Positions 1,384 through 1,591 of a stretch of 64,000 bases of DNA are shown piece by piece. Every line of letters begins with the position of its first letter. Position 1 is the stretch's first letter. The DNA lies in the IMG/VR virus record IMGVR_UViG_3300045988_085326, positions 1 to 64,000 of that record, one strand, 5' to 3'. Source of the stretch: a virus. Made by a program: the position numbers and the translations under genes. The notes under the pieces were generated by a model. It was not told where the DNA came from and did no database searches. It worked only from the letters and a program-made list of their open reading frames with translations.

Positions 1384-1591
1384 TTAGGTTGGATGATACC
1401 AACCGATGTAAATATGATAGGATGTTGCGTGGATAACGCTAGCTGGCAATCATTTAAAGAGTGTGTCGCGACACTTTGGACATATGGTCACACTATCCGC
1501 ACCGAAAGCGTTATCATGGAACCCTAATAAAGAGCATGGTCGGGGTGAGGTCTGGTCAACCGCAAAAAGAAAGATGACGCACCATGCATAT

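Follow-up and report, generated by a model that had tools for sequence, protein, structure and literature searches.

The spacer that separates tRNA-Gln(CUG) from tRNA-Asp in this phage tRNA array encodes a genuine folded non-coding RNA with a four-way junction at its core, as judged from covariation among homologous sequences. Within the window, the 64,000-nt stretch of viral DNA that was analysed, tRNA-Gln(CUG) occupies 1310-1384 on the plus strand according to ARAGORN and the tRNA model; it has no encoded CCA and represents the conserved partner upstream of the RNA family described here. The spacer follows on the same strand at 1385-1591 (207 nt), with tRNA-Asp (1592-1665, plus strand) directly 3' of it and a tRNA-like relic nearby at 1209-1300. 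The first-pass annotation of the window had proposed a structured RNA in this spacer, and the homologous regions proved to be conserved and to covary strongly. The spacer had also been called GC-richer than its surroundings, and its GC content is indeed 45.4%; the window as a whole has 32.4% and the tRNAs have 54%. Short overlapping ORFs on opposite strands, likewise pointed out earlier, are present in the ORF list at 1393-1527, 1461-1577 and 1463-1678 on the plus strand and at 1450-1641 on the minus strand. Two exact copies of a promoter lie on the tRNA strand at 1008-1059, where TTGATT-17-TATAAT falls within an exact 29-nt repeat, and at 1893-1944. Their elements at 1008-1036 and 1893-1921, sigma70-like on a consensus basis, flank two tRNA-Gln genes, the spacer, tRNA-Asp and tRNA-Arg, in agreement with the earlier placement of the spacer inside a tRNA transcription unit. 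The element at 1008-1036 is probably the start of a unit comprising tRNA-Gln(UUG), the relic, tRNA-Gln(CUG), the ncRNA, tRNA-Asp and tRNA-Arg.

Homologues were found in related phage loci by nhmmer and a covariance model, which matches the window at 1412-1500 on the plus strand with 88.8 bits (E = 1.3e-21) and delineates a conserved core of ~86 nt, a cloverleaf-like four-way junction. Covariation was assessed in a MAFFT alignment of 43 distinct homologues built with no structure input, using 500 shuffles and slid pairings as controls. In this alignment 95.0% of the cells were paired and double changes occurred in 18 of the 25 pairs, while none of the 500 shuffles matched the observed value and the slid controls reached 53% at most. 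The covariation was seen in five of the six core helices.

The core is closed by P1, formed in the window by GAUAG (1416-1420) and CUAUC (1493-1497) on the plus strand; across the family this helix has 5-8 bp and no conserved bulge, and six of its seven pairs covary. The 4-bp P2 (GAUG at 1421-1424 with CAUU at 1451-1454, plus strand) bears a domain that carries hairpin A and a palindromic linker. At pair 12:43 of this helix, 24 sequences have U-A and 17 have A-U, with C-G or G-C occurring in subtype B. Hairpin A (GCGU-GGAUA-ACGC, 1427-1439, plus strand) lies inside the P2 domain with all four of its pairs covarying. The near-invariant UUUAAAGAGU and a nearly invariant G then span 1453-1463 on the plus strand. 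P3 consists of AAA at 1456-1458 paired with UUU at 1475-1477, plus a GAGU bulge, on the plus strand; the AAA/UUU pairs never vary, so this helix is beyond the reach of covariation. The same is true of the proposed tertiary contacts, among them one between the GAGU bulge and ACA, since all of them involve invariant bases. Hairpin B (GUGUCGCGACAC, 1463-1474, plus strand) exposes a palindromic CGCG loop and has four covarying pairs out of four. The P4 hairpin (GAC-AUAUG-GUC, 1479-1489, plus strand), whose loop is of the AUAUA type across the family, covaries at all three pairs with 100% of the cells paired, and an invariant ACA (1490-1492, plus strand) joins it to P1. G·U pairs are tolerated, for example at pair 10:50, which is G·U in 38 sequences and A-U in five, and the RNA is therefore assigned to the tRNA strand.

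The fold put forward in the first-pass annotation differs from this structure; it was largely wrong and missed the four-way junction. Its centrepiece, a 9-bp complement between GATAACGCT and AGCGTTATC, is perfect but not conserved, and its arms lie at 1432-1440 and 1507-1515 rather than at 1434-1442 and 1509-1517. By our estimate ~0.08 perfect 9-bp inverted repeats are expected per random 207-nt sequence. As a conserved fold this helix was rejected: it is specific to the window, its 5' arm forms the covarying hairpin A in homologues, and its 3' arm falls in the subgroup-specific region of the 3' hairpin and tail. The two local hairpins that had been pointed out, GGTTGG/CCAACC at 1387-1404 and GTGTCGCGACAC at 1463-1474, both exist, but only GTGTCGCGACAC coincides with a conserved covarying helix. 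The description of the spacer as full of pairing was not borne out by energy, as its minimum free energy of -55.7 kcal/mol is no lower than chance would give (z = -1.31; 24 of 200 shuffles fold as well or better); folding of the minus strand is not significant either (z = -0.77). The evidence for structure is the covariation in homologues and not thermodynamics.

The core is framed by additional structures. In most family members it is preceded by a 5' hairpin, P0, with a conserved T-loop-like loop, usually G(G/A)UYRGAAAYC, and a stem that varies in sequence while its pairing is kept. The window carries a divergent version of it, GGTTGG-ATGATA-CCAACC, at 1387-1404 on the plus strand. On the 3' side of the core, an H-type pseudoknot was found in 30 of 62 flanks compared with 3.7 in shuffles, and its stem S1 covaries (CGUU:AACG, GGUU:AACC, CCUU:AAGG). 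In the subgroup of the window a 3' hairpin, CGC-ACCGAAA-GCG at 1498-1510, and a tail, UUAUCAUGG, stand in its place (1498-1519 together, plus strand); this arrangement is found only there, and its CGC/GCG stem is replaced by CCC/GGG in locus L189. The loop of hairpin A and the tail show GAUAA/UUAUC complementarity in about five of nine members of the subgroup on inspection, with both sides constant. Pairing of the P0 loop with the loop of hairpin A or of the 3' pseudoknot was considered and rejected, as inspection revealed no consistent complementarity or covariation. The remainder of the spacer, 1520-1591 on the plus strand, is a lineage-specific insertion in which 1534-1540 and 1581-1587 pair as the hairpin GCAUGGU...ACCAUGC. 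L258 lacks this insertion, L163 and L256 have different sequence in its place, and that of L157, with the stem GUGAGGU/ACCUCAC, is homologous to it by eye. An nhmmer search with the 3' part of the spacer (1501-1591) returned no homologues.

In total the family comprises 105 matches representing 70 distinct cores in two subtypes, A and B, and all its members come from uncultured gut or rumen phage contigs. Cultured phages matched the tRNAs but not the spacer in megablast and blastn searches, and an exact 21-mer of the spacer was absent from IMG/VR. Among bacterial genomes, only one of 13 pattern matches was genuine, and it lies on a contig binned to a Clostridium MAG. The Rfam/Infernal scan suggested in the first-pass annotation matched no family over the spacer: Rfam 15 at gathering thresholds identified only tRNAs in the whole window, and searches of 1-4200 and of 1384-1592 alone with E up to 10 gave at best a plant-virus pseudoknot at 13 bits (E 9.9). 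Likewise, Rfam searches of eight homologous loci produced nothing that overlapped the motif. The core sequence was absent from the literature searched, which did not extend to the supplementary files of a published catalogue of 10,006 viral structured RNAs (PMC10690425). We could thus find the RNA family neither in Rfam 15 nor in that literature. Of the other structured stretches proposed for this array, 420-640 and 2401-2895 do represent conserved RNAs with covariation, which we place at 414-560 and 2402-2895. For 175-340 a homologue was found in one near-identical contig only.

The position of the RNA is tied to one tRNA identity on its 5' side. Where a tRNA lies within 50 nt upstream, as it does for 37 copies, it is tRNA-Gln or a tRNA(CUA) suppressor in 35, and the core begins 25-45 nt 3' of it. 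Of the 50 copies with any upstream tRNA, 28 have Gln(UUG) as the nearest one, 12 have Gln(CUG) and five have tRNA(CUA). The downstream neighbor at an equally short distance, in contrast, can be any of nine tRNA identities or tmRNA. Mimicry of the anticodon loop was examined as an explanation, as CUUUG of the motif equals positions 32-36 of tRNA-Gln(UUG), and it was rejected because UUUG is kept unchanged in members that follow tRNAs with CUG or CUA anticodons. The link to tRNA-Gln might be partly historical: a tRNA-Gln duplicate may have given rise to the RNA, and the carriers are all related phages.

The second distinguishing feature of the family is the self-complementarity of its exposed sequences. 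In the unpaired linker of subtype A, a perfect palindrome of at least 6 nt (6-8 nt) was present in 38 of 54 cores, in 18 different sequences, while shuffles gave 5.8 on average and never more than 14. The other 16 subtype A members lack such a palindrome; some of them have only TGCA, and in one lineage the linker is deleted. Close relatives may differ at four positions with palindromy kept, as in ACGCGU versus AGCGCU. The 4-nt loops of hairpin B are palindromic in 38 of 42 cases. In subtype B, it is the hairpin B loop that carries a palindrome of 6-8 nt, in 13 of 16 members versus 1.9 expected, and some of these loops are 9 nt long, like that of the HIV-1 dimerization initiation site (DIS). 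As these exposed sequences stay palindromic while their letters change, we propose self-association; the pattern suggests that the RNA pairs with copies of itself. The linker palindrome of the window, GCUAGC at 1438-1443 on the plus strand, is a candidate site for such RNA-RNA pairing. RNAcofold predicts a dimer with a ddG of -10 to -12 kcal/mol. The variation of the palindromes between members rules out a single sequence-specific DNA-binding protein as their reader.

Taken as a whole, the sequence comparisons lead us to favor, by a modest balance of probability, a model in which a stable self-pairing RNA is excised from the array transcript and is coupled to tRNA-Gln. The promoter at about 1008-1036 would drive one transcript holding both the RNA and the tRNAs, from which host enzymes would free the RNA: RNase Z or trimming would separate it from the 3' end of tRNA-Gln, and RNase P would cut where tRNA-Asp begins. 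By analogy with established tRNA maturation, the latter cut would set the 3' end of the ncRNA. Its two ends may be shielded by the 5' hairpin and by the 3' hairpin or pseudoknot, and the released RNA could then form a homodimer or a higher oligomer through the linker palindrome (GCUAGC) and the fully palindromic hairpin B. In the weakest step of the model, the assembled RNA would act in trans on something linked to tRNA-Gln or to Gln/amber decoding, or would serve as a scaffold or decoy. A possible binder of this assembly is the Ro60-like protein, whose gene lies at the array's end. A more specific version has a rather low probability: an RNA of ~150-200 nt with two independent palindromic interfaces would assemble into dimers, rings or chains and would work specifically with tRNA-Gln or the amber-suppressor tRNA. 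If so, it might sequester that tRNA, present it or protect it, or might serve the Ro60-like protein as a tRNA-shaped decoy or scaffold.

That protein raises the alternative that the RNA is a Y-RNA analogue, the dedicated partner of a phage Ro60-like (DUF2828) protein, which like YrlA would tether the ring protein through a tRNA-like module to another factor and so serve RNA quality control or repair in the course of infection. The gene at 3970-5454 on the plus strand, at the end of the array, encodes a 494-aa Ro60-like RNA-binding protein with DUF2828 and DUF7788/vWA domains, and mycobacteriophage records name the protein "Ro-like RNA binding protein". A Foldseek search with its predicted structure, a model of moderate quality (pLDDT 64), gave Ro60 structures as the best full-length matches (TM 0.35-0.41); a sequence search with the DUF2828 protein against solved structures gave nothing. 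According to Chen et al. 2014 (PMC4201824), genes for Y RNAs lie no more than 4 kb from Ro60 and share its strand; the RNAs contain domains like those of tRNA and are also present in phages. In the window the Ro60-like gene is 2.5 kb downstream on the same strand, and such a gene was found 0.8-5.9 kb downstream, again on the same strand, in 13 of the 25 independently found motif loci whose flanks extended 6 kb or more. The cloverleaf topology of the core, with a 7-bp P1 and a 4-bp P2, is also in line with a Y RNA, and a family P0 loop, GGUCGGAAA, loosely recalls the Ro-contacted GGUCCGA/GNCGAA motif. However, the Rfam models YrlA (RF02553) and Y_RNA miss the motif, the weak sub-threshold RF02553 matches of 20-25 bits lying elsewhere, and the long terminal stem, the invariant T and D arms and the exact GNCGAAN0-1G motif are all missing. 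The family P0 loop GUCGGAAA is only similar to the Ro motif, and that of the window, AUGAUA, lacks even the loose resemblance. Moreover, the RNAs at 414-560 and 2402-2895 are equally near the Ro60-like gene and would be equally good candidates, and DUF2828 phages such as Bacillus phage Skywalker, in which a tRNA array is likewise followed by DUF2828, gave no match to the motif model. A Y-RNA analogue would leave both the link to tRNA-Gln and the palindromes unexplained. We consider this alternative unlikely; that the Ro60-like protein may be a partner of the RNA is a separate and speculative suggestion.

A cis-only element, which would insulate the tRNA-Gln precursor, guide its folding or time its 3' maturation and have no role once cut, is rather improbable. 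It would account for the fixed spacing of 25-45 nt 3' of tRNA-Gln or tRNA(CUA) and for the terminator-like U-run after the 3' pseudoknot stem in some members, and it has a precedent in the theta ribozymes that flank tRNAs of gut phages, including amber suppressors (PMC10879173). On the other hand, an 86-nt junction with ~25 invariant bases, palindromes and end structures exceeds what an insulator needs, the self-complementary loops would have no obvious role in cis, and the other tRNAs in these arrays are processed with spacers of 0-10 nt.

It is very improbable that the RNA represents a new class of self-cleaving ribozyme whose task is to set free tRNA-Gln or the tRNA that follows. The highly conserved junction core with invariant unpaired bases would suit a ribozyme, as would a tRNA-adjacent position in gut phages comparable to that of theta ribozymes; several small ribozymes also dimerize. 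Yet Rfam searches matched no known ribozyme family, the core is set apart from both tRNAs by structured flanks of 25-45 nt, and RNase Z and RNase P of the host already explain both ends of the RNA. Its helices are all nested and there is no hammerhead core, whereas HDV-like and theta ribozymes are described by a nested double pseudoknot of P1, P1.1, P2, P3 and P4 with a catalytic C in J4/2 (PMC10879173). The HDV-family models did not match the motif, and theta or HDV-like, hammerhead and other ribozyme classes were rejected on topology and for want of Rfam matches.

A decayed tRNA or other non-functional remnant, a palindromic site acting at the DNA level and a small ORF are the least probable readings and we disfavor them: the cloverleaf-like topology, the true tRNA-like relic at 1209-1300 and the short ORFs over the spacer could be cited in their favor, but ARAGORN and, even at E up to 10, the tRNA model (RF00005) are blank over 1385-1591, so that the degenerate tRNA pseudogene named in the first-pass annotation is not what the spacer contains, and 70 distinct cores keep compensatory pairs and invariant sequences that differ from tRNA bases, unlike a pseudogene, while G·U pairs and strand-specific conservation favor RNA over DNA, the reading frames run into tRNA-Asp, and substitutions are pair-wise rather than codon-wise.

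The stable self-pairing RNA that we favor bears on a fifty-year question of stable RNAs hidden in phage tRNA clusters, which dates to the species 1 and 2 RNAs of phage T4, and on the large orphan RNAs near phage tRNAs, ROOL and GOLLD, which were recently shown to be self-assembling cages. The present family is a small and abundant case, with a fold defined by covariation, a signature of self-pairing and a link to one tRNA identity (Gln or the amber suppressor), and its carriers are phages common in human gut and rumen samples. With a core or RNA of ~90-150 nt, it has a size suited to direct experiment. If the model is correct, the family would be a small, tractable relative in kind of the ROOL and GOLLD assemblies with a defined tRNA partner, and it could tie together the biology of tRNA arrays, stop-codon recoding and the widespread phage Ro60-like proteins.

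A close parallel in genomic setting is with rnaC and rnaD of T4, small RNAs of 139 and 119 nt whose genes lie within a phage tRNA cluster, on the tRNA strand, and carry the annotation "small, stable RNA". The T4 species 1 and 2 RNAs are excised from the tRNA precursor transcript, and to our knowledge their function is still unknown. The T4 genes differ in that they follow tRNA-Arg, the tRNA-Gln of T4 being directly followed by tRNA-Leu, and we know of no report of palindromic loops in rnaC or rnaD. With filters off, the highest-scoring match of the model in T4 69000-74000 had 13.6 bits and lay inside a CDS, and rnaC scored at most 7.8 bits, leaving rnaC and rnaD unmatched.

ROOL and GOLLD also occur near tRNA genes in phages and prophages, and kissing loops help hold their complexes together. 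They are ~580-800 nt long, about 4-9 times larger than the phage RNA, and ROOL was reportedly first found in rumen samples. A recent report (Nature 2025, PMC12286853) describes both as orphan structured RNAs that form RNA-only homo-oligomers. Their fold is unrelated to the one described here, the window has no Rfam match to them, and oligomers of the phage RNA are only proposed, from its palindromes. For the working of the loops, a comparison is offered by the HIV-1 DIS, a 6-nt palindrome in a purine-flanked hairpin loop. The HIV-1 loop is AAGCGCGCA, and the subtype B locus L126 has a loop of the same format, AACCGCGGA; the context and biology are unrelated, and the comparison concerns how the loop might work and not family membership.

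YrlA (RF02553) and other Y RNAs resemble the phage RNA in that they have tRNA-related folds, are found in phages and are encoded on the strand of a Ro60-like gene, at most a few kb from it (PMC4201824). Theta ribozymes, in contrast, are compact double pseudoknots with a cleavage site at most 5 nt from the tRNA (PMC10879173), whereas the phage RNA is nested and lies 25-45 nt away. From tRNA itself the RNA differs in having no anticodon loop, no T arm within the junction and no CCA end, and in placing ACA between P4 and P1. It nevertheless shares with tRNA a four-way junction whose closing helix has 7 bp and whose second helix has 4 bp, in the order found in tRNA, and the family 5' hairpin loop UUGGAAA resembles the T-loop UUCGAAU.

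The + strand of the window opens with an 11-gene tRNA array, in which 207 nt separate tRNA-Gln(CUG) (1310-1384, +) from tRNA-Asp (1592-1665, +). The first-pass annotation had proposed a structured non-coding RNA for this spacer, and several of its observations were confirmed. The spacer is GC-richer, at 45.4% compared with a window-wide 32.4% and with 54% in the tRNAs, it contains two local hairpins (1387-1404 and 1463-1474), and short ORFs overlap on its two strands. Its portrayal as full of pairing did not hold, as the fold energy is ordinary (MFE -55.7 kcal/mol, z = -1.31; z = -0.77 for the minus strand) and the spacer sequence by itself does not show structure above chance. 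A perfect 9-bp inverted repeat is present, with arms at 1432-1440 and 1507-1515, 2 nt upstream of where they had been placed. The long-range helix drawn from it is outside the conserved fold: its 5' arm is hairpin A of that fold plus one base, and its 3' arm is in a 3' segment common only to the subgroup of the window.

Sequence matches in cultured phages were confined to the tRNAs, with none over the spacer. The neighbouring 494-aa ORF (DUF2828 + DUF7788) was therefore used as bait and led to 80 related IMG/VR loci, all 80 with tRNA arrays upstream of the ORF. Searching these loci by nhmmer with the spacer as query revealed a conserved stretch of ~90 nt in five, marked by the invariant signature UUUAAAGAGUG...CUUUG...ACAC. 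Patterns derived from the signature were scanned against IMG/VR, metagenome contigs and one genome per bacterial species, and a covariance model from 10 sequences was then run on the fetched loci. With all searches pooled, the model gave 105 hits and 70 distinct cores; the window copy (1412-1500) scored 88.8 bits. The core of the human-gut contig L163 is identical to that of the window and its neighbouring protein is 99.4% identical. The species-genome collection yielded a single hit, on a contig binned to a Clostridium MAG, and the family appears to be phage-specific. Since the DNA polymerase has its nearest counterparts in Enterococcus phages and Bacillus SPbeta-like phages (39.6% identity), the host is likely a member of the Bacillota.

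The homologues share a four-way junction closed by P1 (1416-1420 with 1493-1497, up to 8 bp in other members). P2 (1421-1424 with 1451-1454) is stacked directly on P1, and its domain contains UU, hairpin A (1427-1439) and a linker that is unpaired. AAA and UUU (1456-1458 with 1475-1477) form P3, which carries a GAGU bulge and hairpin B (1463-1474). P4 (1479-1489), a hairpin of 3 bp whose loop is AUAUG, is joined back to P1 by ACA (1490-1492). The fold was tested on 43 distinct subtype A cores that MAFFT had aligned with no structure input. Standard pairs filled 95.0% of cells, compared with 71% in shuffles and at most 53% with slid partners; both-sided changes were seen in 18 of 25 pairs, and the observed covariation was reached by 0 of 500 shuffles. 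The 10-sequence alignment agrees with this picture. Only the AAA/UUU helix of P3 is without variation and hence without covariation support. The RNA was assigned to the tRNA strand because of its G·U pairs. Members of subtype B (34-50 bits) retain P1, P2, P3 and P4 and contribute C-G and G-C at P2 pair 12:43. With covarying homologues of the core found and its pairing tested, the proposal of a structured RNA was upheld, and the spacer almost certainly holds a true member of a structured-RNA family for which we found no description. Separately, AGUGUG (1460-1465) is complementary to CACACU (1489-1494), and both the GAGU bulge and ACAC are invariant; a link from the P3 bulge to the ACAC before the 3' strand of P1 may form a tertiary contact or pseudoknot across the junction.

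The core is flanked by further structures. Nearly all members have an upstream hairpin, P0, with a freely variable stem and a T-loop-like apical sequence, G(G/A)UYRGAAAYC; the window version, GGUUGG-AUGAUA-CCAACC, has diverged from this form. On the 3' side, most members carry an H-type pseudoknot, which was detected in 30 of 62 flanks versus 3.7 in shuffles. Its stem S1 starts immediately after P1 and covaries (CGUU:AACG, GGUU:AACC, CCUU:AAGG, AGGUU:AACCU), its stem S2 is variable and its final loop is A-rich. The subgroup of the window has in its place a small hairpin, CGC-ACCGAAA-GCG (1498-1510), followed by the tail UUAUCAU; CGC/GCG becomes CCC/GGG in locus L189. The remainder of the spacer (1520-1591) is an insertion that L258 lacks and in whose place L163 and L256 have unrelated sequence; its hairpin (1534-1540 with 1581-1587) recurs in L157 with compensatory changes.

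Sigma70-like promoters at 1008-1036 and 1893-1921, within an exact 29-nt repeat, bracket tRNA-Gln(UUG), a tRNA-like relic, tRNA-Gln(CUG), the core RNA, tRNA-Asp and tRNA-Arg. The repeat, TATAATATTTATATAAGAAATAAAGAAAA, has copies at 1008-1059 and 1893-1944 that overlap the promoter TTGATT-17-TATAAT, and a shorter version recurs many times across related phage loci; it is probably a phage promoter signature for tRNA and early units. No CCA is encoded in tRNA-Gln(CUG). In Bacillota, RNase Z cleaves precursors of this type immediately 3' of the discriminator base, and the 5' end of the tRNA that follows is generated by RNase P. RNase Z at the 3' end of tRNA-Gln(CUG) and RNase P at the 5' end of tRNA-Asp would free exactly the spacer, and it is likely that a stable RNA is excised from the tRNA transcript.

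Among 50 representative copies that have an upstream tRNA, it is tRNA-Gln in 40 and a tRNA with the amber anticodon CUA in 5; where it is no more than 50 nt away (n = 37), it is one or the other in 35. The downstream neighbour is equally close (25-34 nt) and may be Arg, Asp, Tyr, Leu, Gly, Val, Ile, Ser, Lys or tmRNA. This constancy upstream and variety downstream argue that the tRNA-Gln is kept by selection, beyond tight linkage. We give roughly even chances to a functional tie of the RNA to tRNA-Gln or the amber-suppressor tRNA. The CUA tRNA, labelled 'Pyl' by ARAGORN, precedes the motif in subtype B loci L102, L110, L113, L126 and L143, and its anticodon suggests that UAG may be read as a sense codon in these phages. 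tmRNA genes also occur within the arrays of related phages (L004:4859-5209, L005:3448-3792 and L177:183-536), that of L004 being 31 nt downstream of the motif.

Other stretches of the array had also been singled out as structured. That at 2401-2895 (480 nt) proved to be a conserved, covarying RNA of ~480 nt (2402-2895, between tRNA-Ala and tRNA-Thr), with homologues in L163, L258, L244 and L255. Five sequences show 21 covarying pairs, with length variation at helix tips. It matched no Rfam family and may be one more of the large orphan RNAs in phage tRNA arrays. That at 420-640 corresponds to a conserved module at 414-560 with a covarying long-range stem (CUGAAACGAGUYAGGUCCAAUCGCUCGA...GGCGAGG...CCUNCGCC, with a variable insert). 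The module also occurs at L001:4327-4467 and L108:7389-7553 and in L258, L256, L178 and L163; it is directly 3' of the core motif in L001 and between tRNA-Val and tRNA-Lys in the window. For the stretch at 175-340 (spacer 175-339), the sole homologue was the near-identical contig L163. L163 and L256 also conserve the spacer from tRNA-Asp to tRNA-Arg (1666-1746). The AT-rich tRNA-like relic (1209-1300), located between the tRNA-Gln genes, retains an intact T arm (CACGGTTCGAATCCGTG) and a stem of 7-8 bp resembling an acceptor stem, scores only 18.3 bits with the tRNA model, and is conserved in L163, L256 and L164. Most tRNA genes of the cultured Bacillus phage vB_BanS_Skywalker (L273) are 0-13 nt apart, and its tRNA-Gln is followed by a 152-nt spacer (L273:3655-3806) with a 13-bp terminal stem (z = -2.3). 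This spacer, which did not match the family covariance model, may encode a tRNA-Gln-linked RNA of an analogous kind.

The 494-aa ORF (3970-5454) terminates the array in every relative examined, including 80 of 80 IMG/VR relatives and Skywalker, in which the array and DUF2828 occur without the motif. It is an RNA-binding protein in PHROGs, has a weak vWA match, and its DUF2828 counterpart is named 'Ro-like RNA binding protein' in mycobacteriophage records. Ro60 structures were the best full-length matches (E 4e-4 to 5e-3, TM 0.35-0.41) to its AlphaFold model, which is of moderate quality (pLDDT 64), and as modelled the protein looks Ro60-like. Among 25 motif loci that were identified without using the ORF and that have at least 6 kb of flank, 13 carry a homologue on the same strand, downstream of the motif. 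By tblastn, the protein has homologues in 710 cultured phage records, including Escherichia, Salmonella, Listeria, Staphylococcus, Mycobacterium and Vibrio phages, and an identical protein is on 139-146 kb contigs from several sources, including ENA and Logan assemblies. Because Ro60 proteins partner with adjacent tRNA-like Y RNAs (PMC4201824), a Y-RNA-like role for the core RNA is a live hypothesis. The core RNA lacks the defining features of Y RNAs, and two other conserved array RNAs are equally placed relative to the Ro60-like gene.

The exposed loops of the core are self-complementary. In subtype A, the unpaired linker after hairpin A contains a perfect palindrome of 6-8 nt in 38 of 54 cores (shuffles: mean 5.8, maximum 14). 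There are 18 different palindromes, among them GCUAGC (window), GCGCGC, GGCGCC, AGAUCU, GUAUAC, ACGCGU and GUGCGCAC, and linkers of near-identical relatives differ at four positions and are still palindromic. Of 42 hairpin B loops of 4 nt, 38 are palindromic, against a calculated expectation of 1 in 16. In subtype B the linker is without a palindrome and hairpin B is longer; its apical loop contains a 6-8-nt palindrome in 13 of 16 members versus 1.9 expected. One such loop, AACCGCGGA, shares the format of the HIV-1 DIS loop. Since symmetry is kept while the sequence changes and the palindrome shifts between two exposed sites, the palindromes are best explained as putative sites of RNA-RNA self-pairing. 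A site for a DNA-binding protein or restriction enzyme does not fit a palindrome that varies in sequence, is constant in symmetry and moves. RNAcofold predicted dimers through the palindromic elements, and self-association of the RNA via these loops is somewhat favored.

Comparison with known RNAs left the family unmatched. With Rfam 15, nothing credible was found over the spacer, whether at gathering thresholds over the whole window, at E up to 10 over 1-4200 and 1384-1592, or over the motif in 8 homologous loci. The spacer was not recognised as a tRNA, degenerate or otherwise, in tRNA searches; an HDV-like theta ribozyme was ruled out by nested helices, a distance of 25-45 nt from the tRNA and the lack of a model match; and relationship to T4 rnaC/rnaD and identity with YrlA were likewise ruled out. 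The core sequence was absent from the literature searched, outside of which is a catalogue listing 10,006 candidate viral RNAs without names. The RNA may serve as a scaffold or decoy, be a Ro-like partner, or function in processing, and for RNA and phage biology these claims are open to direct testing. The family adds to the orphan RNAs already known from phage tRNA arrays, some of them self-assembling.
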